From Bilabrum cf. latius (Eukaryota): DNA of 64,000 bases. Made by a program: the position numbers and the translations under genes. The notes under the pieces are model-generated. The model was not told the origin of the DNA and ran no database searches. It saw only the letters and a program-made list of their open reading frames with translations. Each line of letters starts with the position of its first letter. Position 1 is the first letter of the stretch. Below, piece after piece: positions 11,770-62,131 of this stretch. The DNA is taken from assembly GCA_965178125.1 (NCBI GenBank), contig OZ237754.1:558001-622000 (forward strand), in the 5' to 3' direction.

Positions 11770-12403
11770 TGAGCGCGACTGCAGGCGATACTGCTTTGAT
11801 CCGGGATGTGACTGATGCCATCCCATTTATTTATGAGCACTGTGGTGCATTGGCGCACTCACCCCTGCGACCCCGCAAAACGCGAGGATGAAGATTATTG
11901 CGTAGCCAACCGTCACAATATTACAGATCAAGTATACTGCAGCGCAATCTCTTTTGAAATGGACGCTCCACCTGGAACTCTCTTCAAAATGCATAAAGTC
12001 GACGTGTCGGACCAAGGGTGAGAGACTACTATTCATTACAGCTCGAGAAAGCGTATCACAAGAATCGGGTCGATCGTGTATTTGTGGAGGTATTCGTTGC
12101 ATTGACGCACGCAGCTTACCGTATGACTACGAGTGCCAGCCAATATGGTTTCTGTACTTCGATGCCCCGTCTGGCTGCGTGCGCTCTGCCGGATTTCGTC
12201 GATCTGGGGGGCCCGCAGCAGCGTCGTCCATACTGCTCGGCACGGACTCTTTGGCATTCAGGGCATCCAAAGGCTCGCTTGGTAGCGACTGGTCAATCTT
12301 GTTCAATATTTGCAATATTTGCAGGATCGAAAGGTCCGCATCTAATCGGTGCTGCTTAGAGGTGCTTCTTGCTCCGCATTCAGCGGAGCGTCCAGGCAAG
12401 TTT

Positions 12404-31200: not shown

Positions 31201-32808
31201 CCTGACACGCTTCACGCAATCAGGGTCCATGCCACGCTCTTGCAGCACATCGAGAAATGTAGTGGAAGTGGAAGTACTGGTACCACCAGTGTCTGATGCA
31301 ATGTATTTGTGCTGCACTGCCTTGAAACCGCGGGCCACATACTCCGCGATACCAAAGTGCCGCGCAAGAGGCTTCACCACGTCCTCCAGCTGCTCCTCGT
31401 CCTGGTGCATAGATGTCCCTCCATCTGAAGACCCCACTCGCAGCGTCGTATCACGAACCGATGTTGCGAAGGCAGTTTCGAAGGCTCCAGCATCAGGCTC
31501 TTGCCCACCGTGTTGCGATTCATGCGACTTACGGAATGCTGCCTCATCCCATGCCATGCACCCTCGCACATCCACTCGAGCAAATGCCTGCACACGGATC
31601 GAGTAGTGCCCACCTCCCACCAGACCCGCACACACATCCACGCACTCCAGCAGAGGTGTCGACACGTGCACACTGTCCATAGCGTGCACCCAACGACTCG
31701 CTGCCGCCTCCCGTTTGGCCGCCTTGGCTGCCATGCGTGTGCTGCCGTAGAAGCCCAGGTGGTCGAACGCGAACTTCAGAAACAGGCCCAGACCCTCATG
31801 CACTGCCTTGATGCCCCCGGCCATGCCACCTGCATCGATGAATGTGAGACCCAGGGCCTTCTCGATCTTGGCCTTGTCACCATCGGTGAAGCCCACGGGG
31901 TCCAGCGACCTGTCACCGTGCCTCCATTTCAGCTCCATCTCGGGAAAACCCTCCAGCGCTTTGCGCACGTCCTGCCTGAAGAGCACCCCGATGCGGTCTA
32001 GCCTTTGCTTGCGATCCTGCTGCTCGTGCGGCCACAGGGCCAAGGTGCGCTTGGCGGCCTCGAATGCAGGCTGCCTGCCCTTGGGGGAAGGAGCTTCATC
32101 GTTGCTATCGTCAGCAGTCTTCTTCGTCCTTGCATCTAATAATGGACTCATTACTGCGTGTCCCGCGCTGGCCCGCCCATCTCCGGCCTCATTGCCACCC
32201 ACAGACACAGGCCCATACGATGGCATGGGTACCTGCCCTGCCCCGGCCCGCCCATCTCCGGCCTCAATGCCACCCACAGACACAGGCCCATACGATGGCA
32301 CCGGCAGGTCCCCTTTGCTGTTGTGCCCGATAATTCTCTCAGACTTCTATTCGACAGCCTCAGATTTTCCTATCGTGCCCGCTTCACCTCCGCCCCCCAC
32401 TTTCAGTGCCCTCCCGTCACTGGATTCCGCTACCTCGTACGGCAGTCGGACAGCAGATGACTAGTCCGCCCCAGCACAGGATGCAGCATGCGAAAGCACA
32501 CGAGTTTTGGTCATTGTCAAGTCCGCAGACATTTCGGAGTCGGCATGTACTTGGGGCGATGCTGGGGGCCTGACCGATTCTGTTGGCGGCTCAATCCCCG
32601 ATTCATGCTGGCCGGGGTCTCCGCCAAAACTTCCATCTAAATCATCGTTTATTTGTTGTACTAAAGTCGTGGTTGATCTATGTACACCGCTGGGATCTGT
32701 CGTTTCATTGCGCGAGCAGCAAGCCGCCGCTTCGCCCTCGGGACCTATATGCACTTGTAGCGGGCAGCTACCAGAGGCAAGAGGCTTATCTAGTTGTTTG
32801 TCTGACAT
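28276..32808 (-). CDS. Clu-domain protein with C-terminal kinesin-light-chain-type TPR array (~1510 aa, 12 in-frame TAG)
   Basis: Six ORF pieces in one frame joined only by TAG; Clu-like motifs GGMAGGIK..FLKFAFD..FYG..AAKAAKRE, VGSSDGG, PFDVEVH..ILDTHRL, HSFGLGLRH; 42-aa TPR units; ends TGA. Confidence 0.85.
28545..29725 (-). repeat. 126-bp (42-aa) TPR tandem array, ~9.5-10 units
   Basis: EQCx[Q]I motif recurs exactly every 126 bp from 28564 to 29698. Confidence 0.95.
32160..32301 (-). repeat. 72-bp coding duplication (PSYGPVSVGGxEAGDGRAxAG)
   Basis: Two near-identical copies in the N-terminal region of the Clu-TPR gene. Confidence 0.85.
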
Positions 32809-33144
32809 TCTGTGTAGGGCAAAACAACTGTCCGGATTCCCTTACAATTCCTGGAAGCAGAAGGCCGCTATGTAGTAGACAGCTGGGATTGAGCTGCCAG
32901 TGGTAGGGATCGATGTCGCAGTGCGAATCAAGAATGGTTTGTTGGCCGCGGCAGGAATCATTAAAAAGTTGTAGAGAGCCGATGTACGTATCACGACTCC
33001 GTTTTATTGTGAAAACGGCTGGGACACAAGACGTTGCAACCGCCTGCAGTGCCAAAACGCCGTGTACCTCCCTCCATACCCCCAGAGCTGAGGCACTGCG
33101 CTGCTATTCTAACTCTGTGCTAGTAATGCACATCGTCAATCGCA

Positions 33145-40416: not shown

Positions 40417-43400
40417 TCACTGGCCGAACACCCTGGTGATCCTGCCAATCCCCCTGATGGCCCCGTCCCGAAGCAAAACCGGAGCACCTGGCGTGATAAA
40501 CTCGGCATGGTTCCTGAAGCTAAAGACTACCTCTCGCGTGTCGCCGCCACCCATGCTCGCCCGCCCCTCCCCTGCCAGTGCGAGCACCCACGGCACGGCA
40601 GCCCCACCCCGATTCCCTGAGAGTCGCCGTCTCCTCCTCGACTCCCGCCGGATCGCCCTGTCCTCCCGCTTCTTCTGCCTCATATCTATCGTTTCGGAGC
40701 CCTGGTCGGCCCCCGCTCTTATTGCTTCTTCAGTCCGGGCTGCTGGCCTGTGGCCTTCGGCTGATGCATCACCGGCCTCACCGGCATCGCCGGCACTCGA
40801 AACACCCGGGCCATCCGAAGAACCCGGCAGCGCAGGCGGCGGAACCTTCGCTTTGTCACTCGTCACATCACTGGCCACAATCTCATCCTGATCGGCCGCG
40901 CGGAACAATGACACGGCCTCCGCCTGCGCCGCCGCGCCTGCAGCCAGACCAGCCAGCTGGTCCCCATCCGAAGCACGCCTGGGAGCTCGCCTTCTTCCGC
41001 CTCGCCTGCCAGCAGCAAGACCCCCGTGCTACTAATACTCCTCCATTCCTTCTCCTGCCACGCCGAGTCGCTTGAAACCAGGACCGTCTCCCCGAAGGCG
41101 ACGGCCGCCATTTCCACTTTGCTGGCCCGCACCGACGCCTCTTGCACCTGACCCGGCCCCTGCCCCCGAGGCAGGCAGGATGGCGTCCACTCTCGCAGGC
41201 CTCCTGAGCGTCCTGACATTCAGCATCACCACCGCCCCCACCCTGAGTCGCGAGGGGTGCTGCAGCAAAAGGAGCTGCACGGAGAAAGTCCTCGAAGCGG
41301 AGGGCCGCAGCCACGGCGACACTAGCACCATCCCTCGCCTAAAGGCAGTCTTCGGCAGCGGCTTTGCTCCATCGAACTCGGAAGCGGCACGGGTCGCCTC
41401 ATCAGGGATCTCGCCGGGCCCGGACCGCGCGGGCTCGCCCTCACTTGGGACAACAACCGAATCATTCCCGCCCTGGCTAGCACCGCTAGCAGCCCCTTTC
41501 GCAGCATCGTCCGCAGTGCTCCCCTTATTCGGTCCTTCTGAGGCAGCGGGACCAGCTGCTGTCGCAGCACCTCTCCCCGCAGCCGTCCCACTAGTCACGA
41601 TCGCTGCTTCCGTACCAACCAGAGCCTTTGCACCCACGTCGTCATCCCGGATCAGGATTGTTCTCGACTTGGACAGGCCCCGGTAAATGGACGGCAGCTC
41701 TTCTTTCGTTGCCTTGACGAGCGCGAAAGAGGCAGATTGACCGGTCGTGACACGCCGCACGGGCAGCCTGAGCGATTGCACAGAGACGCACCGCACGGGC
41801 CGGAAGCAGCCCAGCCCATCTGGCCCAAGGAGTAGCACGTCTCCCGCGTGGACAGACCCGGCATGCAGCACTCCAGACACCACGAGCCCACCCGCCCTGG
41901 GCACGTAGAACACCTCGTGCAGAGAGCCCAGCGATGGTGCCCTGCGGATGCGGGTGGGGGGATTGGGCCTAGGCACGGAGGCCAAGAACGCGTACATGGC
42001 CCGTATGCCGCGCCCAGTCACGCAGCTCGTCAGCACAACGGGAACTACCCTCTCCTCGCCACCGAGCGCCAATGCTGCTGTTTCTGCTCCCTTGGTAGAG
42101 CTTCCCGCATCGCCGCCATCACCCGGTTGAACCTGCTGGCCGAGTCCATCCTTGGCATCATCGACAACGACCACGTGTCTGTGAGACCGGTGCTGCTGCA
42201 GCACGGCCTCAATCTCTCGCACACGCGCCCTGAGTGCCTTAGGCTCGGCCGCCTCCCCGTCGACCTTGTTGAGCACCACAAAGGGCAGCAATCGGAGAGC
42301 GATGGCAATGCCGAGGTACTCTTTCGCTACCCTGGTGAGCCCCTTGGATGCGTCGATCACCAGCATGCAGTATGATGGGTCGTGGCCCAGGAGCCCCATG
42401 GTTGTCGTCTTGGCGTAGCGCTCCGCACCGGCCGTGTCGAGAAACAGGATGGCCCGCTTCGACTGCTTGATGATCTCTTTCCAGGAAAGAGGCACTCCGT
42501 CGAGCGTCTCCACGCTGCCGCTCACGATGGGAGCCAGCTTGTCGCGGCCGTAGCCACCTGGAGGTGCCGCGTGCAGCGCCCTTCCATCGCCTTGGACACC
42601 ACCACCGCCACCTCCACCAGAGTCGCTATCACCGCCCATCATGTCGCCAAAACCGCCATCATCACCGCCCGAACCAGCACTGTCATCGCCAAGCAGATCA
42701 CCAAACCCGCCATCGTCGTCTTCGCCATCTTCGCTCCCCCCACCCACTGCCATCCCACCTGCTCCTGCATTCGTCTCCCCCTGTGCAGCTCCATCGCCGT
42801 CACTCCCCCCCGCTGCAGCCTTGCCATCCACGGGAGGCGCAGCCGTGTACCCAAACAGCTGCGTCGAGACGCTGCTGGTCCGGCCCTGCTCAAACTCGTG
42901 CCCGTGACGAAAGACCTCCAACCGCTTCAGACCGTCCCCGTCATCCAGCCCGCCCTGCGTCAGCACCGCGATCAGGGTCGATTTCCCGCAGCCCTCCTCG
43001 CCCACCACCGCCACCCGCAGCTCCTCCACCTCATCCCTGCTCTCAACCTCCTCCCGCAGCCTCACACCGACCTCGCACGCGTAGAGCGAAGCCTTGGATC
43101 CCGTGCTGCTGCCGCGGCCTGGCTGCGGGGGAGCAGCCGTGGCCGCGCTGGGATCCGCAGCTCCGGCAGCAGCGCCGCTGCTGTGCTGGCGCCTTCCCTT
43201 GCGCTTCCGTCGCCTCACACCGACTCCAAGAAACACCTTGTGGACGAAAATGTCGGCGTTATTCTCTTGTGCGATGCTGTCCAGAACAGCAAGCGACGTC
43301 CGCATCAGCGGCTCTTTGACCCCGCGAGGGTGACCCCCATCCTCGTACCCGACCTGGTACGTGGCCCGCCCGTCCCCTTCTTCGAGCCTCCAGCGCATCT

Positions 43401-45798
43401 GAGTGACCAGCTGCATGTACCGCTCCCGTGTGCTAGGAGCGAGCTTCAGCTTGTACTCCGTCCCGCCCTCCTCCACCTCGCTAGCCAGCGGAGTGGCCAC
43501 CGCAAGAGCCTTTGCAACGAGGTCCGTGGCGCCAAGTCCCTTGCTCGTGTCAAACTTCTGCCAGTAGGCTGGTACACGATCCACAACGGAGCGAGGGTAG
43601 TACCTGCCTGCCGCTTTGGGCCTGCCTCGGCCAGAAGGCAGCTTCATTGATTGCGCCATTGCATCGTCCGGGTCGTTCACGTGGTCAATCTCGTCGTCTC
43701 TCTCGCCCTCCCGCTTCTTCTTATTCTTTCGCTTGCCCTGCCTCCCCCCTTTCTTCACCTTACCGCCCTTCGCGCCCCTGTCTTTCTGCTGCCTCGCCTT
43801 CCTCGCCTCTCTGCGTTCCTGCTGAAGCTGCTCACGAAGGCCTGCATCTCCTGGAGGACCACCAGAGCGACCGCCACTGCTCCCTGCCATGCCCTCGCCT
43901 GCCATGCCGGGCAAGCTAGCGTCTGCAGATGCACTGGCTCCAACGAATCGGGTGTAACGCGGCCCAGAGCCCTCGGCGTCGTCGGCAACAGGCCCGGTTG
44001 CTGAGGTGCTGTCGCGCCCGCCTGTTCCACCTCTCGATGCAGTGGATGGTTCCGCTTCCGGAGCCTTAGTACCCGCAGGATGATTAGCACCACTGGCAGC
44101 AGCTGTGCCTGTGCCCTGAGACAGCTGCCCGGGCTCTTCCGTCACCTCTGTGATCGTGCTGTCTGCCGCATCCCTGCCGGATACGCTCGTGGCGCTCATC
44201 CCCGTGGTCTGCCTTGCAACACTCCCTGGTGCTAAAGAGGGGCCGCTTCCCGAAGTGGACCGACCCACGCTAGAACCGCCGGATGAAGTGCCCCTTGCCA
44301 TGCCAGACGCACCAAGTGCGATCCTCCGGCCGCTCTTGCTCCTCGTGCCGTCAGCGGCATCATCCTCGTCCTCTTCCTCTCTGATTATAGGCGTCAGCAC
44401 GGAACCACCACCGCCTAGTCCAGTCTATACGTTTGAGATGCTGCTGGGCGCCATGCCGTAGCTGCTGTGCCCGCCGAATGCCGTACCATTCGAGTCCTCG
44501 CCCTCGCCCACGGGAGTACCAAAGGCAGTTTGCGCAGCGAGTCGGTGTGCTTCCGTGGACGATGGAGACCCGCTACTGGTGCCCTCCCCCAGCTCTGGCG
44601 GATCAGTACTATCGGTGACCTACCCCATTTCGCCAGACACTGGGGGGCTGCCGCTCGCTGACGCGCTCCCCTGACCAGACCCGGGTCGATTGCTCAGCAC
44701 TCCAGAATCAGGGCTGCCCCGGTCGCTGCCTACCCAGTCGCCCCCCCCCATCCCCGATGGACTACCCCTTCCGCTATCCCTTGCCCACCGCCCGCTGGCT
44801 GCCCCGGCAGATCGCACCGACCCCGAGCCCGACCCTGCGCCTCCGCCGGCACCAAGCCCGCGCATGTGCTTTGGTAGCGCTCCAGCCCCAGCCCCGCTAC
44901 CGCCCATGCTATCGCTGTCTAGGCCAGCCGGAGGCCTCCAGCCCACGGCCTGGTCCTGATCAACTTCTCCGGTTGCGCTCCCGTCCAAGTCGTCGCCCAA
45001 AGCGAGTCCCACTGGCACGCTTCCGCTGCCAGTGGTACCCAGCCCCGCACCCCCCCCGAATCGAGGGTGAGGGCCGGGGAGGGCAGGGCTGCCGATCGTG
45101 AAGCCGTTGCCGGCATCACTGGCTCCCACTCCCCCCCTACCACCCGAGTAATATCCAGCAGGAGAACCAAAGGGCCCCCACATGCCGCTCGCACCGCCCG
45201 CGCTGCTGTACCCGGACTGGCTGTCGCCATCCGTGCTCGACCAATCGTCCGATCCGGCGCCGCCGTCGTGCCTTATGTCCTCCTCATCGGCAGAATCCCC
45301 GGTCTCATTCAAAGGTGGCTCATCAGCAAAGACTCCTAGGCCGTCTGTTTTGCTTGCCGTGCCTGGCGCGTCGTTCGTGGTCGCACTATTGTGCAAATTC
45401 AAAAGCATGGCAGCGGCGCCATCAGTTAGGGACGCATCTCGCAGCATAGAAGGTGGCAAATTTAAGGATCCCACGCCAATACCCCCTCTACCGCGGACGC
45501 CAGCCGCAGCTGCAGCGCCTAGGCTTTGAGGCCCGCCGATCCCAAGAGATTCCAGAGTGTCGCTGCTACGATTTCGCCTACCTCGAACGCGCTCATGTCG
45601 TCCATACCGACCGTCTAGTATGTGCTATCTCTCATGTGGGCGCCCTCTGTGCCTGTCTAGGAGTCTCGACGAGGCTGTTGGGGCCTCCAGTACGGAATGC
45701 CCCACCCCAACTGCCTGGGTCAAGTCGCTCAGCGAGGAGGCCCGCTCACGCAAGAATACGAAGTCCCCTCCCTCCGTGCCCTAATTTGAGCCAGACAT
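40417..45798 (-). CDS. GTPBP1/GTPBP2-family translational GTPase with large low-complexity insertions (~1793 aa, 6 in-frame TAG)
   Basis: EVEEGGTEYKLKL..QLVTQMRWRLEEGDG, GEEGCGKSTL, FRHGHEFEQGRTSS, DTAG, NKVD, SCVTG, beta-barrel domains, C-terminal FRNHAEFITPG..LLRDG..GIGRIT; ends TGA. Confidence 0.9.
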
Positions 45799-46124
45799 TA
45801 GACGAAAATTCACGAATAAGATAAACTTATCGTGCTAAGGCCGAGAAAAGTTGCTTGATACTCGTGTGATATACCCGCCAATGTTGCGAGCGTTTATGTT
45901 CAGGCTGCGCCCCCGGCCCGACCCCGCCCGCTACGGGCCTGCACTAATGTAGGCGCGCGGCGCTACCGGCCACGAACCATCTGGTGCCACGCTGGCCTGG
46001 ACAATGAGCCAGAAATTGGGCAGGCAGAAGCGCGACCGGACGGCAAGGTGCCGTCTTCGTGGTCATACGCAGGCTGGCGTGCGCATGCGCCAACAGGTAT
46101 GGCCAGAGGGGTACCCGTGCGGGG

Positions 46125-46211: not shown

Positions 46212-46720
46212 GGAATCTCACCTGCCACAGGTCCAGTGGATCCACTGGTCTGAATGCGGCATGCTCTAACGCAACGAAGGGACCCGTTGTCGCTCCCCCC
46301 CCCGACTCCCGCGATAGTTCGCCCTAGTGTCCTTCTTGGCTGCTCTCCGCGCCATCGCATCATCTCAGCCTCCACGCACAGGTCCTGGCCGCTCTGCCAT
46401 GCGTCCCTATACGTGCTCACCCCCGCGCGGCGGCCAAGGACCAGGCAGCTGGTCCTCTTCCACTAGCACGTGCCGCCACAGGATAGGTGGCCTATAGTCG
46501 GCGTTAGTTTTGTGCGGTTAGTATCTTTGCAATAAACTTCACAACTTTGATGAAATTGGCTGCTTGCGGAAGGAACCGGAGCAGAATACTCGAAGCAGCG
46601 CGTGGATCGGGTAGCGTGCCCTCTACCAGTACTCATCGCGCGCCCCGGGCTCTAAATGATTTAATGAGTACCAAATAATAGCTGGATACTGTTGCGGATC
46701 CCTATTGTGGAAGCATAATT

Positions 46721-49700
46721 ATGGTAGACTCCGGAGTTGCACTTCGGGAAGAACCCAGGCAGGTTACACTTAGCGAGATTCTGCCGGTACTTCGCAGCAA
46801 GCATGCGGCCGTAAAGTTAGCTGGGCTTCCCCATGTCCTGAGAATGGTGCACAGGTCGCCATCATCCTCGCCCGACCGGTAGCAAGTCTTAAATGCAGTC
46901 GGAAGGCCATTTTTGTTCTCCTTACTTCATCGATCTCGCGGCGAATAGCTTGCCTCAGCACTTACGACTGCAAGAAGTATAGTCTTGCAGCTGTGCTAGG
47001 AGCTTGCGCAAGACCCTGTGTGCTCTCGAAAGCTTCGCGGGGCTGTGCCATTGCTTCTTTCGAGCATTCGAAAAGCCACCGACCCAAGGGATATTTCAGC
47101 AGCAGCGCGGTGCTTTGGAAATATTATCTAGAGTGTTAGTACATTGTCAGGATTGGGGGGGCATCGCACAGTATGGTCGATCTGCGAAGCTATCTGCCGC
47201 CTTGCAAGCCAAAGATGGGACACTGCACCAGGCACCATTTCGAGCAGCAGCAGCACCGACACTAGCCAGGAAGCTATGCTTTGGTGCATGGAAGCACTCC
47301 GTACGTGCTTTCTGGCCGAGTCGCAAGGTAGGTTGCGAGCAGTCGATGCCGGAAAGGAGGTTGGTGCAAGCATGGCAGCTGCTGCCGTGTCGCATGGCGG
47401 TATGGAGACTCTGTCGGCGTTCTTGAGCCATCCCAACGGATCCATTGCTATTGCAGCAGCGTCTTCCATTGATGCTGCCATGGCTGCCATGATGGTAGCG
47501 CACCAGTCGAGCGAGAATGCACCGGGGAGCACCTGGCCGGCATGGGCGAGCGAGCAAGGTGCGAAGCAGCTGCCCGGCGCTCCCAAGACCGGGCGCAACG
47601 AACCGCACCACATTCATCCTGCACCTGCTTTCCTCGGCGCTATTTCTGCACTGTATGAAACCAAAAGTGTGGTAGGAAAATTGGACGAGGGTGAAGAAGA
47701 GACCGGGCGCAGTTCAGGCCAAGCTGAGTATGCTCGGCCCCTGCCCCGAGCCGAGAGCGAGGTGGCCGGTGCCATCCGCAAGTCGGCTGGAGCAGGTAAA
47801 TTTGATATGCCTGGTTCGTCAGACTCCAATCCTGTCTCAGAGAACGCGGAGTAGGAAGAGAAAGCCGGCGACAGAGACGACGGTTCTGCGGTGGCCGGGC
47901 CGGCTTGGTCGTTGGCAGACTTGCAGTGCTCGCCAGAGCAACTGCTTAGTCCTACCGGCGTACTCGTCCCCAGATGGCTGCACGCCCTCAGGCAGGGTCT
48001 GTTGGCCGGGCTGGTGGTTGCAACCGATAGGCAGCACATCCAGTGGCTCCTGCGAGTGTCGTTTTCTGCGATGACCTGCTTTGGCCAGGCGTGGATGACG
48101 GGCCCTGCAATGGGTGGTGAAGACGATGGCGCCTCGGGCGTTGGAAGCGCCCTCGATGGGGATCCTAGACACACGGATGGAAGTGGGTACAAGAGTAATG
48201 GGCGGGATGCCAAAGGATCTAAGGGTGGATCAAGGGCCAGTGCCGCACATGCAAGAACCGCTAGTAGTGGTGAGGCGGACAAGCCGTCCAAGCAGTCTGG
48301 TGACACGGCATCCAATGGTCCAAGCCGGGGCGCTCTTGTGGTGATGCTGGCTCGAATAGCTGCAACAGAGGCTGTGACGTGCATCGATAGCCTTCAGCAA
48401 AGCCTCGTGGATAAAGACTCTGTCGGGGCCGTGGTGCCTTCAACCGCGTCACCTGCTTCAGCTGCGCAAACGCAGAGCGAACCATCGCACTCGCCACATA
48501 CAAGCAAGACAGCACCTAGTGACGAGCCAATGCAAGCCAGCGTTACCCATGATAGTATGCATTCGGCCTCCGAACGTCTTGCAGACCCCGAGGCGCCCAC
48601 AGAAGCTGCCGGCGAAGACGTGCATGGCGGTGACGCTGATGACGATGACGGCGACATACCCCCACCCCTGGAGCCTGCATCAACTCCAATTCAACCGTCG
48701 CCGCAGCAGAGCTCCAGCCCTACTCGAAGCGACTCTGCTGCAGCTGCAGAGCCAGCCTCTCCTGGCACCGCGGACTCAAAGCTTGGGGACGCCCAGTCCT
48801 CCAAGCACCCCCTTTCCAAAACAGAGCCCGACACTGCAATCGCCGCGCTGACGAGACAGCAACGCGCCTACAAAGCTAGGACCGAGATAAGTTGGGCTTG
48901 CCGGGGGCTCGATCTGGCCCTTGCAGTGGTGGGGCATCTCCTGCACTCGCTGCGTGCTGGATTTCGTGAGCAGGGTGACGATGGTGACGAGCTTGTTGGC
49001 GATAGCATCTAGCAAGGATATGAAGGACATGGAACGTATGGACAGCGAATGCGGGCATCGCAACGCCTTGGTCTAGTGGTTTGGCCAACCGATGACTTCA
49101 ACAGTGCAAGCATCCCAACACAAAACAGCTCGCAAGCCGGCAAGCACTCTGCCGATTCAGCTGCTTAGGGCACAGATGTAGGCACAGGCAGCGGGAAAAG
49201 TGTCGACGCAGAGGATTAGACAGTGATGCTGGATGCCTTCGCTCTGCGTTCAGACCGGCTATCTGTAAGCTCTCTTCCCCCCGATGCGTTGCTCGGCATG
49301 AGGAAGGTCTTCTAGGAGACCACCGACCTCGTGTGCTCCTTCGTGCGTGACGTGGGCATGAGCCAGCTTGGCCCTCTCCTGCTCTCGCCGCTGTCTACTG
49401 CACACACGAAGGAGTTTCAGCGCGCGGTCGTTGACGCGTGTGCCGAGGTCGGTCTACGCCGTGGGGTGTCCACTGAGTCCCCCGGTGATGGCGCCGATCA
49501 GCAGCCTGTGGACCTATTCGCCACCCTGGGAGGCCGGGCAGCCGCAGCGTGCTCGCCAGTGATGATGTGCTTGCTATGGATTGCCACTGTGCTCGCCGAG
49601 GAGCCAGACTTGGGTGGTGACTGTCCCAAGTCACTGCGACCCGCGATGGCGGTTTTGGCGCGATGGGCACTCCCTGCAGTGGTGGTCACTGACTTGACAA

Positions 49701-51166
49701 AAGACTGCGAGCAGGAACTTGCTCGCTAGGCGACAATGTCTAGTGCATAGACTGGAGGCGGCGAGTCAAGGGTTTCGTTGGAAGCTGCAGCGAGTAGTTC
49801 AGATAGAGCTGAGAGACTGCTTCGCAGAATTCTCAGCTCTCACAGAAAGACGGGACGGGCTGGAGCTCGGCGTCCCGAGCTATTGCCTTGCCTGCTCCCA
49901 GTTGTGGTCGAGGCTGCGTGTGCCCCCGGTGAGAATGAGTAGGTGCCCCGCAGCATTCGGAGGGCAGGCGTGCTGGCTGCCACTGTGGACGCATGCAGCG
50001 CCGCAGCCTGGGCAGTTGTAGTGCAGCTGAGCGAGCTGCAAGCAGCCGTGTCAGCGGGCCAGTTTGATGGCCTGGAGTCCATGGTGCAGTCGCTTCTCTC
50101 CCGTTGTCTGTCCCTCGATCACGTGGCCCAATCGTGCACACCGCTAGCTCTTGCCACTATTGGCTGGGTGGACAGACCAAGCCCTGATGCCGTGAGGCAC
50201 GATCCCGAGCCAGGGCTTGCTCCATCGCGCGGTTCACCAAGCAAAACAGACAGCACTGATGCAGCGAGCGTCAGCGACGTCACGCTGCGCCAGGAAGGAA
50301 AGCTACAAGTTTCGCGAGTGCTCAGAGCTTTGGATGCCCTTGCGGCTTGCGCAGAGGTTTGCTCCAACGGTTCCCTTGACGCCGTGCTAGAGGCAGCCCG
50401 AGTGCTCGAAGGCAGGGCGAAGATTCTCACGGGCGGCAGCGGCTCATCGCACCCGGTTGGTGCGAGCCCTGGGGCAGCGCAGAGCTCCATATTGCAAGAA
50501 ATTGACAGCCGGGTGGCAGGGGCAAGACAGGGCGGGGATCCACAGGATGGGTTCTCCCTATAGCAGCAGTGGGCTCTCATCGCGTCGATCGCGCCACACG
50601 TGGCTGGACTGCCTGCGGCCGCTCATCCCAGGGCTACAACATAGTGGGATACGTATGTGCACGTTAGTGCAGTGCAGCTGCAGGCGCAGGAATTGCTGGG
50701 GGCGGCGGGTGCAGCCTCGGCGATTCTGCTCGCCTGCTTGCTGCGCTCCTTCGCTGGCCTTGCCGTCCCCATGCCTAGGAGGGTCGGGGCTGGAGGAGCT
50801 GCCGGTGACCCAGAACAACGAGGACACGAAAGCGGTATGGCCTCGCTTGAAAAGAGATCGGAGAAATGGGTGAGGGCGGTGCTAGGCTACGTGGCATCGC
50901 AGAGGGCGGAATCGACCCACACCACACCAGGTACGTCAGGGGATGCGGGCGGGGCTCTGGCGCAGACTGTCCTGGAACACACTGCCCCCGTGCTCCGGAC
51001 AACTCTGCGCGGGGTCGCAATGGAAGCAGGTGAGTCCTCCGAGCCGTCACTCGTAACCCTTGGTGAGCTGTGCAGCGCCGCGGGCAGGAACCTTCGCGAA
51101 CACCTGTCAAGGGCCGGCCATCCGTTGGAGCAAGTGCTCCGAGAGGTGCTCGATTCCGGGCGATGA
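46721..51166 (+). CDS. Neurochondrin-like ARM-fold protein with insertions (~1481 aa, 14 in-frame TAG)
   Basis: N-terminus TLSEILPVLRSKHAAVKLAGL..QVLNAVGRPFLFSLL resembles the neurochondrin start; five ORF pieces in one frame joined only by TAG; ends TGA. Confidence 0.7.
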
Positions 51167-51319: not shown

Positions 51320-52023
51320 TCACGAAATCGAGCAGCAAGGCTTCGTCTTTGCAGCCGATGTAGCGAATCTCTTCGAAGATTCTGACAGGTCGTCTGAAGC
51401 CGCAACCAAGTCGTCGAGCTTCTCCCCTCGTTTCAGCATGTCATCGATCGTCTGCGTGAGCACGCCCTTCGTCTCGTCCAGTTTGCTATGAATCTTGGAA
51501 ATTGTATCCACCTGAGTTGGGTCCTACCACTTCTCAATTGCCGTGCGAATCTCGGGCGTCTCGCATTGCAAGTCCTTCGAGCACGATGCCCACACAGCCG
51601 GCTTGTGCCGCTGCTCGAAAGCCTCAAGCATCTTCTTGTTTAACGCAGTGGCAACACGCAATGGGTACGTTTCATCATGAACAACTGTACATCGCAAGCC
51701 GTTGTCCAGGGCATAGTTTGTGCATCGGTACCCATTGTACTCAACCTGCGTTACTCCAGCCACCACTCGCTTCGATACGATCCTAACTCCAAACTTCACA
51801 GACTCTGCAGCGCTGCGATATTTAAGTTAGATTCAATGGCTGATTGGAGCTTGAGAGCTGCATTGCTGGTGTTCTACAACGAACGACATAGAATCTCCTG
51901 TTGTTGCACTTACCTACCACGTGTCAGAAAAGAGAATTCCGACAAATCAGTGACCATATCCAAGATAACTGGTTCAGAGGTATCCTCGTTCCAGCGGGTG
52001 ATGGCAATTGCGGTGATTTTCAT
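51320..52023 (-). CDS. YKT6: R-SNARE YKT6 (longin + SNARE + CCxx prenylation motif), 2 exons
   Basis: MKITAI..DLSEFSFLTRGS, YPLRVA, KW*DPTQVD, LDETK..RGEKLDDLV..S..LS..SK.F, CCSIS-TGA; intron 51813-51913 (GTAAGT..CTAAC..CGCAG). Confidence 0.95.
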
Positions 52024-52655
52024 TGCTAAATTCCGTCGTTTATGTGTCTAGCACATCTGCAATCTTGCGGAACCTGCGGGAACGGCGCCGCGCGAAACGC
52101 ACCGGGAAACTTCGGCAGAACGTGCGCAGAGAAACACGCCTGATCGTAGAGCACTTGGAGACAGAGCAGGCATCGTTAGGTGGCAGAGCGTGTGAGTAAA
52201 CTATGAGCGAGCAGGCGTCGATTATTTGGTGGCCTGCCAGTGGTCGAGATTCGCCTGCCATTGGCAGAACCAGTAGTAAGTGGTCACCAAGCGGCTCAAG
52301 CGCGTGCGCGATTGAAACTGCGGTGCTGGCTTCAGAGGCAATGCCAAAGGGGAGGAACATTGTGGCCCGTGTGCCTCTCCCTGTGAGCCAGATGGTTGCA
52401 CATCAGCCACACTGGTATCATGGTGCTAGTCTGGCCGCACGCCGACCCGCCCCCCGAGTACTAGTAAGGCATTTCACTGCATCCCCAATGCAGGTGAGAG
52501 TGAGCGCCCGCGTGCAACTTAGGACTGATCAACAACTTTGATTGTGCGGTCATAATACAAGGTAAGCGTTCCTAAGCAACGGCTATGGGTGCCAGTGGAT
52601 GAGCTGTGCATCGCAAACGATGTCGAGAGTCTATTTCCAACAGCAAGCACTGCGT

Positions 52656-53380
52656 TCAGTCCGCGCCATCTCCCTCATCACCCTCGTCCTCTTCCTTTGC
52701 GTGGGCTTTGTGCACAAGAACCAGTGTACATGTTGCGCCCGGAGCGATCACCAGCTCCTTATCGTTCGTTCGGAGCCGCAACCATCGCAATCTCAACTCT
52801 TCCGCTGTCTGCGAGATGTGATCGGGAGCATAGATAGCTGAAGCGGTGCGCCCAGGCCTATAATGATTCGTAATTAAGCTCGTGAGCTAGACTTACGGGC
52901 CCTGTTGCATGAGTGTTGCAGAAATCCTATGCCTTCACTACCAAATCCTTAATCAAACAAGCATAATGCGTAATCTATCGTGGAATAACGAGGCCACTGC
53001 TCGGCGGATTGGGGTCAAATCCAGATGCAGACCATTTGATAGGGATCCCTGCGGCGAGAAGTTAACCAGACTGCCAGTGAAGGACCAAGTTGCACCTGTG
53101 GAGGTTGCGAAGCACTCAATCTCAATCCCTGGGCATGACACTCACCCGCCTCGTTCACAATAAAATATCCAACCACCCCAGGCGATTCGAGAAGGGGTTT
53201 CATAGTGGAATCAATATCAGCTGGTCCCTCGTCCTGCAATGGAATCGAACACAGGGCAAGGGTGTGAAACATGCTACTCTGCAACAATGCAGCTTCACAA
53301 CTCGGCGAGATACATGACAAGCGACTAACTTCTGCTCCTCCATCAGCTCCGCTTGCAGCTTTTCTTCCTGCCGCTGCCAT
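52656..53380 (-). CDS. Dynein light chain roadblock/LC7 family, 4 exons (2 in-frame TAG)
   Basis: PGVVGYFIVNEAGIPIK, HYACLIKDLVVKA, LRWLRLRTNDKELVIAP; introns 53234-53329, 53049-53145, 52809-52896; ends TGA. Confidence 0.85.
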
Positions 53381-53482
53381 GATAGGATTTGTCTTGATCG
53401 CGTTCCGTTGGAATAATATATCATTTTCTCTCAGGCTGCGAAAACTGCACGTCTCAATTCAGGGCTTGCAACTCTCACAATT
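53381..53482. promoter_or_regulatory. Putative bidirectional promoter (102 bp) shared by roadblock and V-ATPase G genes
   Basis: AT-richer spacer between divergent ATGs at 53380 and 53483. Confidence 0.5.
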
Positions 53483-54121
53483 ATGGCTGGGTATGGCGGT
53501 GGGCAAGAAATTTAGGCACTGAGATCTGCCGAAGAATCAGCAAAGCGGGAACTACAAGCTGCAGCCGAAGGTGAGATTCTGCTGCGGCGTTAGGAGTGCA
53601 CGGATTCGCACGATACACTCCATATCTTCAGTGTGTGTCTTAAGCTAGCGCAGAATCAAAGCGGTAGAGATAGCAAGTTGAGCAGTAGGCAAAAGATTTG
53701 GCAATGCAAGACCACGAACGAATCCGTGAACAGATGCTCCGGGATATCAGTACTGTGAGCAAAGTCGGAGCAATCCAGCACAGGTATTTTCTCTATTCCT
53801 GCGTCAGCAGGATGCCGTGTTGGAATTCATTTTTATTCGTTCTTGCAGCAAAAAGAAATTGACCAGTTGAAAGTGGAACTCGACAAAGAAGCAGACTCGT
53901 TCGTATCGAAGCTTGAGTAAGTGGTTCTTTTTGTGGTACTTGTAGTTGCAGTAGAATCGGTAATCACTTCAAGAAATGTACCGATCGATTGCGTTTCTAT
54001 TTCACATCGCAGTGGTCATGCACAGGAGACGCTGCCGCGTCTGGCAAGACTTGTGACGTGGATGGTACAGCAAACCGATGACATAGGCCACGCTGCAGCA
54101 GATCCTGATAGCAAGTCCTAA
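53483..54121 (+). CDS. V-type ATPase subunit G-like protein (~121 aa), 4 exons, 4 in-frame TAG, TAA stop
   Basis: MAGYGGGQEI*ALRSAEESAKREL matches the subunit G start (GIQQLLxAE..A); introns 53571-53653, 53755-53848, 53917-54012; spliced length 366 nt. Confidence 0.7.
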
Positions 54122-54316: not shown

Positions 54317-55201
54317 TCAAGTCTCAAGGGCACTGCGCTTCTGCCGCCGGCCACGCCTACCAGACCCCCGAGACCCGGGCCCTGTCCTGGTGGGGCTGCG
54401 GGCCGCCGACCCAGGGGACGCTTCCGCTTCAGAAACCTGCGCTGACGCAACCTCGGGGCCCCGCCCGGCAGAAGCACCCGCCGGACCGGTAGACTCCGCT
54501 TCCTTAGCAGGCGCGCGATCACTCGCTGCAGACGACTCCTGCCCGCTGCGTGGCGCTTCAGGCGCTGATGGCTGTACCGGAGCGGCAAGAGCAGCCTGCT
54601 CTGCCTTCTCCCGAGCATCGGCCTGGGCCTTCTCTCGCGCTGCCGCCTCCTCTGCCTTGCGCCGGGCCTCTTGCTCCCGCTTGTCCTGCTCTGCCTTCTC
54701 CCGAGCATCGGCCTGGGCCTTCTCTCGCGCTGCCGCCTCCTCTGCCTTGCGCCGGGCCTCTTGCTCCCGCTTGTCCTGCTCTGCCTTCTCCCGAGCATCA
54801 GCCTGGGCCTTCTCTCGCGCTGCCGCCTCCTCTGCCTTGCGCCGGGCCTCTTGCTCCCGCTTGTCCTGCTCTGCCTTCTCCCGAGCATCAGCCTGGGCCT
54901 TCTCTCGCGCTGCCGCCTCCTCTGCCTTGCGCCGGGCCTCTTGCTCCCGCTTGTCCTGGTCTGCCTTCTCCCGAGCATCGGCCTGGGCCTTCTCCCGCGC
55001 TGCCGCCTCCTCTGCCTTGCGCCGGGCCTCTTGCTCCCGCTTGTCCTGCTCTGCCTTCTCCCGAGCATCGGCCTGGGCCTTCTCCCGCGCTGCCGCCTGC
55101 TCTGCCTTGCGCCGGGCCTCTTGCTACCGCTTATCCTTTCTCTTCTTGGCCTCAGCCTCAGCTGCTTCTTCCGCTGCTTTCTCCTGCACCTTTTTCAGAT
55201 C

Positions 55202-55243
<42 letters not shown>

Positions 55244-56744
55244 GGCTGCAGGTGCCTGCGCAATGATTCCATCTTCGTCCTCGTCCTCTTCCTCGTCCTC
55301 TTCAACGGCGGGTACATTGCCTTGAGATTGCTATCGGCTGGATGCAGAAGCATCAGATGCGATATCCTTCCCACCCCTACCGTTACCTCGCTCCTTATTC
55401 CAGGCCTCGCTCTCACCCTCACCCTCACCCTTGCCCTCGCCGTCTTGCTTGACTACCTCCGCGGGGCTGCCGTCCTCCAGGGCGCGCACCACGCCGCATG
55501 CTCGGTTCGCCGCAGCTGCTGACTCCGGGCCCTTCCAGTGCTTCATGAAGGTTCCTTTGTCGGCCACCCAAGCGCGACCGCCGTAGTAGTCCCTCGGCTG
55601 CAGGGCCGAAATGATCTGATCCCTAGAAAGGTCCGACAACGCGGATACAACCGCTCGCTTGAACAGAGATTCGCCCTCGTCCCCCTTGGGGAAGTTGCTC
55701 CTGCCGACCTGCTTCCTCACTTCCCCAATCTCGATGGGCTTGTGCACGGTGATAACGACCTCTTCGTGTCCTATCTCGGGCACCCCCCTGAGGGGCCAGT
55801 TGGCTCGCATCCCAGACAGGGTGATAGGCAGGACTGCAGTGTCTGTGTCGTTGGCAGCGATGAAGGCGCCGGGCTTGAAGGGACCAAGCGGTCCATCCAG
55901 CAGGTTTATGTAACGAGTTCCCTCGGGAAAGAATAGAAAAGACAGTTTCCCGTCAGTGATGTACTTCTTCGAGTCCTCGAGCGCCTTGTGACGCGCTGCC
56001 TTGCCCTTGTCGTCAGACCGAGTTCGCTCGATGGCAACATGACGCGCAAAGTAGAAAAGCTGCCCCATGATGGGATAGTACAAGATTTCCTGCTTGATCA
56101 TCGCCCGGAAATTGATGACTGGAAGCAAAGAGAGAACAAAGGCGTCCAGTGTGCTCTGGTGGTTGAGTGCAATGACCACCGGCCGGTCCTTCGGGATGTT
56201 CTCGACGCCCTCCAGGCGGTACTTCAGAAACGGAAAGATTGCCATTCGAGTTAATACGCAATTCGTACTGCGATACGGAACACTTGCCAAGCGCAGCGCG
56301 GAACATTCTTGATCAGGCTAGCTGAGCAGCCCCGGCAAAATGAGGTGCCGGCGGAATACCTCCTGTAAGAGGGAACATAGTTGATGCACGGACTGGCAAG
56401 ACAACCATATATATTAAGGTGCTCACTACTATGCAAGGTTGCCGTACGGGTCAACAAAGATGGAGATGGGCCACGCAATGATGTACAGTAGTACAGCAAT
56501 GGTGCCGAACAGCATCTGCAGGCCTAAGAGCCCGAACACCCGTGCACTGCGGTACGCACAGCTCAAGAAATTGAGTACTCAAATGGAACCAGGCGCTGCA
56601 TAGATGATTCGTGAAAGTGCGGTTAAACCAAGCTATGTGGGATTGGGTCAGAGCCACGGCCGACAAAACTTACCGCAGCAACCAGCTACCTGGGTTGGAC
56701 TTCTTGGGTACATAAACGCCGTCATCACCCCGTCGTTTTCCCAT
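54317..56744 (-). CDS. 1-acyl-sn-glycerol-3-phosphate acyltransferase (PlsC/LPAAT) with long charged repeat tail; N-terminal exons tentative
   Basis: NHQSTLD and FFPEGTR motifs, PFKPGAF, VLPITL; read-through of TAG 55331 and 55124 to TGA 54317; putative introns 56596-56673, 56516-56555, 56268-56426. Confidence 0.85.
54597..55136 (-). repeat. 90-bp coding tandem repeat x6 (EQDKREQEARRKAEEAAAREKAQADAREKA)
   Basis: Units at 54601, 54691, 54781, 54871, 54961, 55051 are near-identical. Confidence 0.95.
55202..55243 (-). repeat. (GCTCAG)n microsatellite encoding (AQ)n
   Basis: CCTGAG x6-7 on the + strand. Confidence 0.9.
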
Positions 56745-56971: not shown

Positions 56972-59900
56972 TCAGTACCCCGGTAGCCGCGCCGCCTGTG
57001 GACTTACCGACCGAGACAGGGCCTGAAGCCCTCGCATGTGACGAGTGTCCTGGCTCAACGGACGGGTGTCCGTCACGTACCTTGGTGACACGCCGAGCGA
57101 TGCCGCCACTCGCTGCACCGCCTCAGTCGCTCCTAGCCCCCCGGCACCAGGGTCAGCCCCTCTCCCGATGCCACGCCAAGAGGGAGCGCCGCCGCCGCCA
57201 AACAGCCCCGAGCCACTCTCAGCGGCTCCAAATCCACTCGTCACACCAGTACCCGCGTAGGCCCTGGTCGGCTGCTCGTAGCTCTGCCGAGAGTGGTACG
57301 AGCTGGACGAGCGGCCTGGGCTTGCGCGTATTTGCCTGCCGGCACCACCACCGTGCGATGCAGTTCGCGCGACCATGGCTGGTGCTGCCCACACGCCACC
57401 AGCCCCGACGGAACCAGACCGCGCCGAGCGCGAGGGTGAGGTGGTGCCACCGTGCAATGCACCCCCGAAGGAGCTTGACCGGTGGAGCCGCTGCTGCTGC
57501 CCCATCGACGGAGCAGGAGCAGGACGCAGCCCGCTGCTGCCGCTGGATTCACCCGCCGCACCCATCCTTACCGGGGCCCTGGACGGCGATTCCTGCGTCC
57601 CGGCCACGGAGCTCACGCTCCCCCGTCGCCTGCCGCCCCGCGTGTAGCCGGGCAGCTGCGACATGGACCGAGTGTGCTGCAGCTGCGCTGCGGCCTGGAC
57701 TTGGGACCTGGGCTGGTAGGAGTAAATGGAGCTGGGCTGCTGGTCTGTCTGCATGGGCGCCGTCGCAGTAGCAGCGGCAGCAGCGGCAGAGGGCGGGGTT
57801 TGATCCAGGACAGGCCCTGGGGCCCGGCGTCTGGCCAGTAGCTTTTCCTGGAAATGGGGAGTGCGCTGTGGCGCACCACCATGTGATGCACCCAGGCTCG
57901 CCTGCAAGCTTCCACCCAGCACATACGTCCTGGATCCACCTCTCGTACTTGATACTGACCTGCCAGATATCGATCTGCCAGATACGGATCCTGCATCTGC
58001 ACCCGCACCACTCGCCGTGCGACTCTGAAAGCCAGCCAACCCGAGTGCCCCACTACCCCTGCCTGATTGGACCGCAGGCCAGTCGTCTCCCCTGCCCCCG
58101 AGGTCTTCGCTCGTGGCGCGGCTGTCACCAAAGCGAGAAAACCGACCGACACTTGCAGACCTGCCTCCCAATGGACTGCCGCTGCCGCCGCCGCCGCCGC
58201 TAGCGATGGAAGCCCTCTCGGATGCCTCGCGATGGGCCCGACGAACCAGCTCCGGGTCATATCCAGCGCTTGCCCTGGTATTCGCACCCGTGTGTCGGGT
58301 TGGGGAGGGCGCACCCCGCCCATCCCTTCCTTCATCGGGAGACTGCAAGTCAACGCGCGAGCCAACATGCCTCGAACTGCCTTGCCTTGGCGAAGAGGCC
58401 GAACGCTGCGAAGGACCGATGCATGGCGCGTTGTTCCCTGTCGAGACGGCTTCATTTGCCCATGTCGGGCGAGATCGTGGGGCAACATCGCGCCCCCGTG
58501 CCGACGATACAGCCGTCGGGCTTGGAGCAAACCCGGCACGGTCACGACCTGGATTGCCTGAGGGCTGCTAGCCGGCCGCACCATTTGCCGCTGCTGCACG
58601 GAGTAGATCAAGCAGGGCGGGCGGCACGCCCGCGGGATCAGCACTCTTCAAGCTTCCTGGCGTCGCACTGTCTTGACCTCGGACTGCATGCGGGGTGCCA
58701 GCCCCGCTTTGCGCCTAGGCAGTGCTCGCCGGCTCCCCCGGCTGGCCACCTGCTCTGGTAGAGATGACCGAGTGCAGCAGCCGATCCATGCGGTCCACGG
58801 CGTCTTTGAATCCCCGGAGGTACTCCTGTTGCTGAGGCGCGGGCGGTTGGCCCGACTACGACTGCTCCTGCTGCTCATGCTGCGCTATGGTGTGTGGTGC
58901 AGCAGCAGGCTACCCGTCTGGCGACGGAGAAGCAACGTCTGCTTGATGGCAAGAACCGTTCGTAGAGCCAGCGCTGCTGCTAGTGGGTTGTTGCGAGGCG
59001 ACAGTGCGGGATACAGTCGGGCCGGTGCTATTGCTTGCAGCAGCACTTGCAGCAGCACTTGCAGCAGCACTTGCTCGCGGGCTAACTAGGCCGGTGACCG
59101 CCTGCACCCAAGCCGAAATGGCGTGGTCGGCCTCGCTTGCAGTCGCTCCGGAGGCAAAGCTGGCGGGGACATAACCCAGCGGCAATTTGCGGGGCTTCCC
59201 AGGGATAAGGGCAACGGAAGGCGGTCTGGTTGGGTCGTAGAGGCACCACGCCAGCATCCAGCCATCAGGTGCCTTGCTCTGGTCCGGGCATCGGATGATC
59301 ACCGTGCCCTTGGAAGCACTCAGCTCGCCCTGGCCCTGCGCCTCGAAGGGATACCGCATTGCCATGCGCTGCCCTTTTGGCAGGCGATCCACCAGTGCCC
59401 TCGGGTCGGCTCGCACCACAGGGGCGACCTCATCTGCAGTGATGGGTGCCAGCCGCGGGCTGCTTTTCTTCGGTTGCGGCTTGATTGAAGACACAGTTGC
59501 TGTAGAGCCCTGCGCAGGCGTGGCAGCGGTGACAGCTGCTCGATCCGCGGTTGTCTTTCCGTGCTCGGAGTTGCCTTCGTCCTTGTCTGCGTGAGTTCCA
59601 CCTGCAGAAGCCCACGAGCCAGGCGTGGTATGCACTCCAGTCGGGCCCACCGCACTGGCTGTTGTTGCCGCAGCAAGTATCCGACTCGAGCGCGCATCCG
59701 TGCCGATGTGCTCTTCACCTGATGTACTCGAGGACAAAGACGATGATGCCTCGCCGCTGGCAGTCTCACGAGACTCCGCGGCGGCTCCTTGCTCTTGTCC
59801 GGGGGTACCTGGCCTTGAAGACACCTCGATGTCATCAGGCTGCACCTCCTCCCGTCTACTGCCAGCTCCATTCGGGACGTTGAGTTCGGTGCCAGCTGGA

Positions 59901-61735
59901 GCTGCCTGCTGCGCGCTAGTCCCCTCGCTGTTCTTGGAGCCACGACCGTCGTGGGGCTGTGAGGCACGGGTGGCTGATTCACCTGATGCCAGGCCATGAG
60001 TCGAACCAACCGGTTCTCGTGCACCCGGGTTTACTGCCTGTTCCTCACTAGCAACTGAAACTCCTAAGCGAGTCTTTTGATGCTCTATGGCAGTCCAGGC
60101 GTCCCCATCAAATGCCTGCTCGCCCACACTTGCAGCCGCCGTGGGGTCGCCTACGATGACCTGGTCCAAGCCAAACACCTCCCCATCGCTGCCCCTTTCT
60201 GTCAGCTAGGGGCGCGCAGGGGGGGGCGTTGGTTCCTCGCCGTTCGGAATATCAACAGACTTCGCTGGAGCTGCATCCGTCGAAGCAGCTGCATCCGTCG
60301 ATGCAGCTGCGGCTAAAGCAGCTGAATCTCCACTTGTGCCATTCGCTTCTTTGTACAAGTCGCTGGTCGCGCCAAGGGCTGCATCGATGGAAGCGTCCAC
60401 GCTAGCTGGCTCTGCACCGATGGGGTCTATAGTGCCTTTTCCAGTGTTGGATGCTGCGCCGGAAGCTCCTGCACCTGCACCTGCGCCAGCCCCAGCAATT
60501 GGCCTTGACCGGGGCCGGACCCTCCGAAGCAGCGGGCTCGTGGGCAACCTCTGCTTTCCAGCGGCTCGCAATGGCCGAAGATACGCCTGTGGTACGTACC
60601 CTTGAGTCACCTCTTGCCCTTCCAGCGTGGGTACCCGCAACACGAATGTCCATCCCTCGGGTTCGGCCGGCCGTGAGTCGATGAGGGAGAGCTTGGGGTT
60701 GGTGGACGGGAGCACCACGTCCCCTGACGCGACCGTGAGCTCGGTGGGATCCTCCGCTCTAAAGTCGTGCTGCACCACCATGGCGTCAGCGAACATTCGG
60801 CGAGGGTTCACCCGAAGTCCTTGCTCTCCTGCAGACGCCCCCGCCGTGTGCAACCCCCTGCTGGGCGAAGACCACTTGCCATGGGCCTGCCCCGCATCTG
60901 TATACTTTCTAGAGGGACTTGTTCTGCGACTTATCGAGTCTGAATACGAGTATGCGGACGATTGCGACGGCATGGGGCGAGCACTTGCCCCTGTGCGAGC
61001 ATCCCGTGCTGTGGCGTCCGGCTGCATGTGAAGCTCGTTCAGGAACGTGAGAGCTCGCTTTGGGCCAGCCAGTGCCAGCGAAGATGGACTACTCGGTGAT
61101 ACATATGAAGATGCGTCGCCTCGCGGCGTTGATGCCGCAAGGGACTGGAACAACCGTCTCCCATGGTGCTGACGATGCAAACGAGCAAGAGGTACCCGAG
61201 GGGACTGCAGCAAGCTTCCGGGCTCTGCTTCGTCTGCAAGGCTAGATGATCCTACTCCATTCACATGAACAACCTCAATGTCATTCGGCTGAACGCGAAA
61301 CGCGGCTACACCGGAGAGGTACGTGCTTCCATGCTTGGCTGGGCTCGACCTCTCAGTAGGCACCCCGTCCCGCCCAACTTCGACCTCATACACTACATCT
61401 CTCGTTGTGCAAAAGTAAGCTAGAAAGTCTGGCCATGTTACGCTTCGGACTGGCGAAGAACCGTGCGAGGGGTGTGCACGCTGGTAGACATCAGTCATGA
61501 CTTCTTCCACCACGGCACGCATTGCCTCCTGTCCGGCGCCAAGTTTATCCTGTAGCCCCAGCATGTTGCCGATCCAAGAATGTTTTCGAAGTGCCTTGAT
61601 TAATTCTCGTTTATCGATTGCACCGTCCTGCTTACCATCGATTGTTGAGAAAGCCTTCCGTACCTAGCGAAGGTCGACCTGTAGACGAGGAATGCCTATG
61701 CTGGCAGGAGTTCGTGGAGAAGTTGGGAGCGACAT
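56972..61735 (-). CDS. EF-hand + two SH3 domain scaffold protein (~1587 aa, 6 in-frame TAG)
   Basis: EF-hand VRKAFSTIDGKQDGAIDKRELIKAL; SH3 HDFRAEDPTELTV..GD..EGW..GYVPQAYL and YPFEAQGQGELS..KG..DGW..GYVPASF; single frame; ends TGA; start tentative. Confidence 0.8.
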
Positions 61736-62131
61736 TCGTTGCAATGGTGAGCACAAAATTCCCGCGGTACCTCCTCTTGGGCAACACTTCCCGGGCAGCA
61801 CAGCTACTCTGCCGACTCGCCGATTTCGCGCTGCAGCACCGGTTGCAACCACTGATCCGCACAGCGACCTGCGCAGCAGCATGACACGCGGCATAACAAT
61901 GAGACCAGGCCACAAGAGTGGGCTCGATTGATCGATATGCTGGCATGCCCTACGGTCTTGCGTGTCTCGCCGCCTGCTGGCCAACTACATTGAAGCGATG
62001 TGGGCCCCTGTCATGCCACGCGGCACAGGGGGTGGGTGGCACACAGCGAGTCTGCATGCGTGGCCGTGTTGAGCAGATGAATACATGATGCGTAGCAAAC
62101 ACAGACTCAACAGGTATTAGCGCGTTTCAAA

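Follow-up and report, generated by a model that had tools for sequence, protein, structure and literature searches.

The stretch of DNA analysed here, which we call the window, comprises 64,000 nucleotides (nt) of Bilabrum cf. latius (GCA_965178125.1, contig OZ237754.1, forward positions 558,001-622,000) and carries, among other genes, that of the SNARE protein YKT6, with the triplet TAG in its frame. We hold with considerable confidence that the window is nuclear DNA of a GC-rich, intron-bearing microbial eukaryote in which UAG is a sense codon, most likely for glutamine (Gln), UGA is the usual stop, and UAA is not sense but probably a rare stop. Its content of guanine plus cytosine (GC) is about 59% (55-63% by bins of 4 kilobases, kb), and its genes are of eukaryote type with short GT..AG introns, those that we modelled being 83-101 nt long.

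The YKT6 gene lies on the minus strand and is composed as follows.

51320..52023, minus strand: YKT6 gene, two exons, spliced model of 200 codons that ends in TGA
52023-51914, minus strand: exon 1 of YKT6
51913-51813, minus strand: intron of YKT6, 101 nt, GTAAGT..GCAG
51812-51323, minus strand: exon 2 of YKT6
51322-51320, minus strand: terminal TGA of YKT6
51524..51526, minus strand: in-frame TAG of YKT6, codon 133, at the conserved Gln of (Y/F/W)-Q-(D/N)-P

The minus-strand reading around this TAG, the sole standard stop inside the 200-codon model, is KW-TAG-DPTQVD. An earlier note on this DNA had set the same reading, at 51524, against (Y/F)Q(D/N)P of the family, and the alignment of homologues agrees with it. 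We searched 1.84 billion representative proteins exhaustively with HMMER and obtained 1835 homologues at E<=0.001; a word-index search with exon 2 had previously found no matches at near lengths. Among the best 150 of the 1835, the column opposite TAG holds Q in 136, A in 4, E in 2, gaps in 3 and V, K, S, T and R once each, while Y and L are absent. It is thus dominated by Gln and not by glutamate (Glu), leucine (Leu) or tyrosine (Tyr). The flanking columns of the same 150 sequences are occupied by Y, F and W (105, 23 and 12), by D and N (89 and 36) and by P (143). In the PDB, where Ykt6 is the best match of exon 2 (E=1.9e-22), all three solved orthologues shown in full length (human, rat and yeast) have Q opposite the TAG.

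The longin domain precedes the TAG and the SNARE motif follows it, and the protein continues past the TAG in the expected manner. Residues 1-199 of the spliced product align to full-length YKT6 proteins, for example to residues 1-200 of the 201 of P0002. The Pfam Synaptobrevin (SNARE) match scores 49.5 bits, its cut-off being 26.4, and lies wholly downstream of the TAG, as does the C-terminal CC-x-x-x tail, which in the alignment corresponds to CCAIM at the end of the solved chains; the claim of the earlier note that SNARE helix and CC tail are intact therefore holds. Longin scored on exon 2 alone gives 21.5 bits, under its cut-off of 26.2. All features of a longin R-SNARE of the YKT6 type are present, namely the longin domain, the SNARE motif, the CC-x-x-x lipidation tail and a length of about 200 residues. 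A second copy, which if free of TAG could have made this one a relic, does not occur in the 64-kb window, where the next tblastn match has E=0.48. None of the bacterial and archaeal genome contigs that we scanned showed a relative of YKT6. The best matches that carry a name are scattered over several supergroups (Platysulcus, Aphanomyces, Paraphysoderma, Carpediemonas, Acrasis, a nematode and Fusarium) at 36-43% identity.

What is seen in YKT6 recurs across the window. We measured frames from stop to stop, either with all three standard stops or with TAG, TAA or TGA freed singly. With three stops the longest frames have 1130, 864 and 806 codons. Freeing of TAG yields frames of 4793, 1881, 1714, 1521, 1495, 1285 and 1110 codons, whereas the maximum stays at 1130 when TAA or TGA is freed. 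Codons were tallied in 12 long frames (16,430 codons) and in the two off-frames of the same DNA. The frames contain 109 TAG, 444 CAG and 191 CAA, and no TAA or TGA at all; the off-frames contain 47 and 65 TAA and several hundred TGA. The longest frame alone, 11837..26218, is accompanied by 11 and 19 TAA and by 64 and 114 TGA in its off-frames. Every long frame of the window contains in-frame TAG. The long frames to which we refer are the following.

423..4280, plus strand: 1285-codon frame, 15 in-frame TAGs, multi-pass membrane-like, no Pfam family
7091..10423, plus strand: 1110-codon frame, 11 in-frame TAGs, the sole long frame that ends in TAA
11837..26218, plus strand: 4793-codon frame, no TAA or TGA, 27 in-frame TAGs, two PX domain stretches
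28276..32841, minus strand: TPR protein (TPR_10/TPR_12), 1521 codons, 12 in-frame TAGs
40417..46062, minus strand: 1881-codon frame, GTP_EFTU-type GTPase domain, 8 in-frame TAGs
46679..51166, plus strand: 1495-codon frame, 15 in-frame TAGs
54317..56413, minus strand: acyltransferase (PF01553), 698 codons, 3 in-frame TAGs
56972..62116, minus strand: 1714-codon frame, weak EF-hand and SH3 matches, 7 in-frame TAGs

Recognizable Pfam domains (PX, BNR_2, TPR_10/TPR_12, GTP_EFTU and Acyltransferase) are found in the TAG-bearing long frames. In YKT6 (longin before, SNARE after) and in the TPR array, domains flank TAGs within a single frame. Smaller frames with matches to Response_reg, LMWPc and a GH43-like family likewise contain TAGs or adjoin them.

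TGA is most likely the main terminator, as it closes 16 of 18 frames or gene models, the remaining two being closed by TAA. These two are the sole in-frame TAAs; both stand at the extreme end of a frame, and each has a TGA within six codons in the manner of tandem stops, 1 codon on in the 1110-codon frame and 5 codons on in a gene of 121 codons described below (54119-54139). If TAA tracked TAG as CAA tracks CAG (191:444), about 47 internal TAAs would be expected in the tallied frames. Since none is observed, TAA is not sense and is at most a rare terminator.

With UAA excluded as a sense codon, the decoder of UAG must be a transfer RNA (tRNA) with anticodon CUA. We suggest that a tRNA-Gln whose anticodon CUA is one base from the CAG-reading CUG would read UAG and not UAA, and that release factor eRF1 would no longer recognise UAG while still recognising UAA and UGA. 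Both parts have a counterpart in the fornicate Iotanema spirale: as described in parts of PMC5304391 and PMC9161772, a tRNA-Gln(CUA) decodes UAG but not UAA, and its eRF1 is altered in the GTS motif. Recoding of the pyrrolysine or selenocysteine type was considered and rejected; the conserved column is Gln, and TGA never occurs in frame.

Further evidence comes from close environmental relatives. Three short YKT6 matches, all from metagenome-derived sets, are far closer to our sequence than any full-length one. P0016 (61 residues, 72% identical) ends exactly at the W that precedes the YKT6 TAG, P0011 (63 residues, 87% identical) starts five residues past it, and P0051 (66 residues, 71% identical) spans its position and has Gln there. 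The 1495-codon frame behaves in the same way. P0173 (84% identical) has Gln opposite the TAG at 46880-82 and ends exactly before the TAG at 46946-48, and P0172 (76% identical) ends exactly before that at 47852-54. Both fragments that span a TAG of the window (P0051 and P0173) thus carry Gln, and all three C-termini that fall inside window genes (P0016, P0173 and P0172) coincide exactly with TAGs, presumably because these fragments, too, have TAG there and gene callers took it for a stop. When relatives were sought a second time, with residues 825-1330 of the 1495-codon frame as the query, the sole matches were two fragments of the locus itself. The sharing of TAG positions with relatives diverged by 16-28% at the protein level suggests that the code is old within the lineage.

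Public protein sets already hold the locus as short split "proteins" (P0171, P0174 and P0175), and pieces of the relatives likewise (P0011 and P0016). Evidently, the locus and its relatives were gene-called under the standard or bacterial code.

Internal repeats offer another view of what TAG stands for. The TPR protein contains ten nearly identical 42-residue TPR_10/TPR_12 units and has a weak CLU-domain match in addition; all six TAGs of the array reside in the last five units, which are the diverged ones. One column of the ten units is filled by CAG six times, by AAG once and by TAG three times (28816-18, 28690-92 and 28564-66). Because "TGC AGG CAG ATA" alternates here with "TGC AGG TAG ATA/ATT", that is, with the same flanking codons, the column fits Gln.

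Provided that TAG is sense, we regard Gln as its very probable meaning, with Glu as the main alternative. Several observations nevertheless weigh against our interpretation. Another TAG of the TPR array stands opposite TAT (Tyr) in five of nine sister units, and two more fall into a column of arginine (Arg), methionine and Leu. In the acyltransferase, the TAG at 55126-55124 (minus strand) is opposite GAG (Glu) in all five later sister units, with "AAG CGG TAG CAA GAG" facing "AAG CGG GAG CAA GAG". Nor was Gln favoured in a Pfam scoring of the TPR region in which TAG was replaced in turn by every one of the 20 residues and by X: Arg was best and Gln in mid-field (sums over TPR_12, TPR_10 and TPR_NPHP3 of about 833 for Arg, 815 for Gln and 806 for Glu), with small and unsystematic differences, so the scan is uninformative. 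Independent columns that speak for Gln are few. TAG does line up with Gln of orthologues, though in only three observations, one being the family column and two being residues of close relatives, of which one belongs to that same YKT6 column. Finally, neither component of the proposed mechanism appears nearby, as ARAGORN found no tRNA genes in the 64-kb window, the Rfam scan gave no match of any kind there, and no eRF1 domain is among the Pfam matches of its frames.

How much do these points favour a different reading? A sense TAG that encodes another residue, with Glu as the main candidate and Tyr, Leu, serine (Ser) or lysine behind it, would draw on the GAG and TAT sister units and on the indecisive score scan, and a stop-to-Glu change has a precedent in peritrich ciliates, where UAR is Glu. 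We nevertheless consider it quite unlikely in view of the YKT6 column (where K and S, too, occur just once each), the Gln of both spanning relatives and the CAG of the TPR column. The TAG-bearing unit of the acyltransferase is, moreover, the most diverged one, and a few codons on it shows a plain GAG-to-CAG change (Glu to Gln), so a Glu/Gln difference at its TAG is unremarkable. A single base separates TAG from each of CAG, GAG and TAT, which is what an origin of new TAGs by point mutation would produce. Gln as the meaning of UAG also has to be compared with a wider code, in which TAA and TAG both mean Gln (NCBI table 6) and TAA is rare from high GC, or with an ambiguous one, in which TAG is sense or stop by context. 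The predominance of TGA as terminator would suit the wider code, and the TGAs just behind both terminal TAAs mean that these TAAs might be read through. The absence of internal TAA, despite about 47 expected and similar or higher numbers in the off-frames, and the location of the only two in-frame TAAs precisely where a terminator is expected make this very unlikely. As for the ambiguous code, no gene model requires a terminal TAG; YKT6 reaches its conserved tail and ends in TGA.

The TAGs might instead be real stops, the genes being pseudogenes, relics of a dead region or products of sequencing or assembly errors. The standard code does break every long gene of the window, and public sets hold the locus only in split fragments. 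However, a single stop triplet intrudes, open frames extend to as many as 4793 codons, domains are intact past TAGs, and TAG positions are common to diverged relatives. We take the probability of real stops to be next to nil. If UAG is a sense codon, YKT6 and the other genes of the window are intact, and the evidence within the sequence supports their being so, as opposed to pseudogenes. The earlier note had argued for both, TAG as a Gln codon and no pseudogenisation. This is upheld by the YKT6 column, by the Gln of the relatives and by the 109 TAGs, which are spread over every long frame. Editing of U to C in messenger RNA (mRNA), which would convert UAG to CAG and leave the standard code in place, would give Gln as well and is compatible with the DNA alone. 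Within these 64 kb, editing would have to act on more than 100 specific sites of nuclear genes, all of them TAG, and we know of no precedent for editing of mRNA restricted in this way. Stop reassignment, on the other hand, is documented repeatedly, as covered in parts of PMC11687900, and editing appears extremely improbable to us beside a reassigned UAG.

Two more genes lie in the interval 51320..54121 together with YKT6.

53483..54121, plus strand: 121-codon gene, the "V-ATPase G-like" gene of the earlier note, four exons, TAA at 54119-54121
53483-53570, 53654-53754, 53849-53916 and 54013-54118, plus strand: exons of the 121-codon gene, with GT..AG introns of 83, 94 and 96 nt
53513-15, 53665-67, 53671-73 and 53686-88, plus strand: four in-frame TAGs of the 121-codon gene, no other stop in the model
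52656..53380, minus strand: 147-codon gene, four exons, GT..AG introns of 96, 97 and 88 nt, ends in TGA
52977-52975 and 52929-52927, minus strand: two in-frame TAGs of the 147-codon gene

The four-exon model of the 121-codon gene is plausible, and codon usage ranks the proposed frame first in all four exons. The earlier note had pointed to EI-TAG-AL in this gene as a TAG at a Gln position of V-ATPase subunit G. These triplets, with TAG at 53513-53515, are indeed in frame in the model, but the family assignment found no support: the exon pieces have no V-ATPase_G match in Pfam at E<=1 or E<=10, and phmmer with exons 1 and 2 gives no PDB match at E<=10, both being weak tests with pieces of 23-43 residues. 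Judged by eye, the heptad pattern and the length resemble those of subunit G, which we take as a lead only.

The 147-codon gene, which lies between YKT6 and the 121-codon gene, had not been listed in the earlier note. It possibly encodes a dynein light chain of the roadblock/LC7 type, as the sole PDB match of its exon 4 is "Dynein light chain roadblock" with a weak E=0.91; exon 3 has no PDB match, and the gene has no Robl_LC7 match in Pfam.

Some other observations concern the remaining frames. The 4793-codon frame has a weak endonuclease/exonuclease/phosphatase match and is mostly low-complexity, rich in alanine (Ala), glycine and Ser, without an assignable family. The 1110-codon frame contains near-perfect tandem repeats at 8900-9300 (plus strand), with three to four units, each about 33 residues long. 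The acyltransferase tail (54317-55300, minus strand) has five near-perfect 30-residue units rich in Glu, Ala and lysine, and long open frames on the opposite strand there (e.g. 54225-55208) look like by-products of GC-rich repeats. A frame at 10813-11766 (plus strand) has its two TAGs upstream of a response-regulator receiver domain (PF00072, 48 bits), found here in eukaryotic surroundings. Another small gene of several exons may lie at 4617-5650 (minus strand), where a match the size of an exon points to low-molecular-weight phosphotyrosine phosphatase (PF01451, 24.7 bits).

The reading of UAG as Gln corresponds to NCBI table 15, and UAR as Gln (NCBI table 6) is used by many ciliates, hexamitin diplomonads, some ulvophyte green algae and aphelids. 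The table 6 code resembles that of the window in the change of a stop to Gln by way of the anticodon of tRNA-Gln. It differs in that UAA and UAG are both sense, whereas no internal TAA occurs in the window's 16,430 tallied codons. UAG as Gln with UAA retained is a rare but already known kind of code. The relevant parts of PMC11687900 name Iotanema spirale, Protocruzia tuzeti and two phyllopharyngean ciliate lineages for it, and also UAG as Leu in an uncultured rhizarian, Rhizaria sp. exLh, and as Ser in Scotinosphaera. Codes that separate the meanings of UAG and UAA are rare, with about eight lineages in the portions of PMC11687900 and PMC5304391 that deal with them. Rhizaria sp. exLh and Scotinosphaera share with the window a sense UAG and a retained UAA (PMC11687900, in part). 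They differ in the residue, as the YKT6 column has no L and one S among the best 150 homologues.

Iotanema spirale is like the window in that UAG alone is reassigned, to Gln, UAA is not sense, and the inferred mechanism, tRNA-Gln(CUA) plus an eRF1 that spares UAG, is the same (sections of PMC5304391 and PMC9161772). In Iotanema, however, UAA is the dominant stop according to part of PMC5304391, whereas TGA ends 16 of 18 frames here, and it is known from a transcriptome (PMC9161772, in part), in contrast to 64 kb of GC-rich genomic DNA with introns of 83-101 nt. A fornicate, Carpediemonas, is among the named YKT6 matches at only 37% identity, beside members of other supergroups. Protocruzia tuzeti and the phyllopharyngean ciliates likewise read UAG as Gln with UAA decoupled, but the parts of PMC11687900 concerned give UAA as their preferred stop and a GC of 27.4-53.6% for Phyllopharyngea, compared with 55-63% in the window. 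Another difference from these ciliates is the presence of more than 12 genes on the one 64-kb stretch of the window. Gene-sized chromosomes are typical of such ciliates.

In open-access literature text, supplements aside, we found no description of a GC-rich non-ciliate genome with the UAG as Gln code. We tentatively propose, as a possibility somewhat short of even, that the window, together with its environmental relatives, belongs to a GC-rich lineage outside the ciliates that is as yet undescribed, with an independent reassignment of UAG only to Gln and with UGA, not UAA, as the main terminator. Annotation of the organism must use TAG as Gln, as the standard code chops every long gene into fragments. 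Codes that split UAG from UAA bear on the co-evolution of release factors and suppressor tRNAs, as discussed in parts of PMC11687900 and PMC5304391. Next to the lineages named above, a further case with genomic DNA at hand and UGA as main terminator would be a useful point of comparison.

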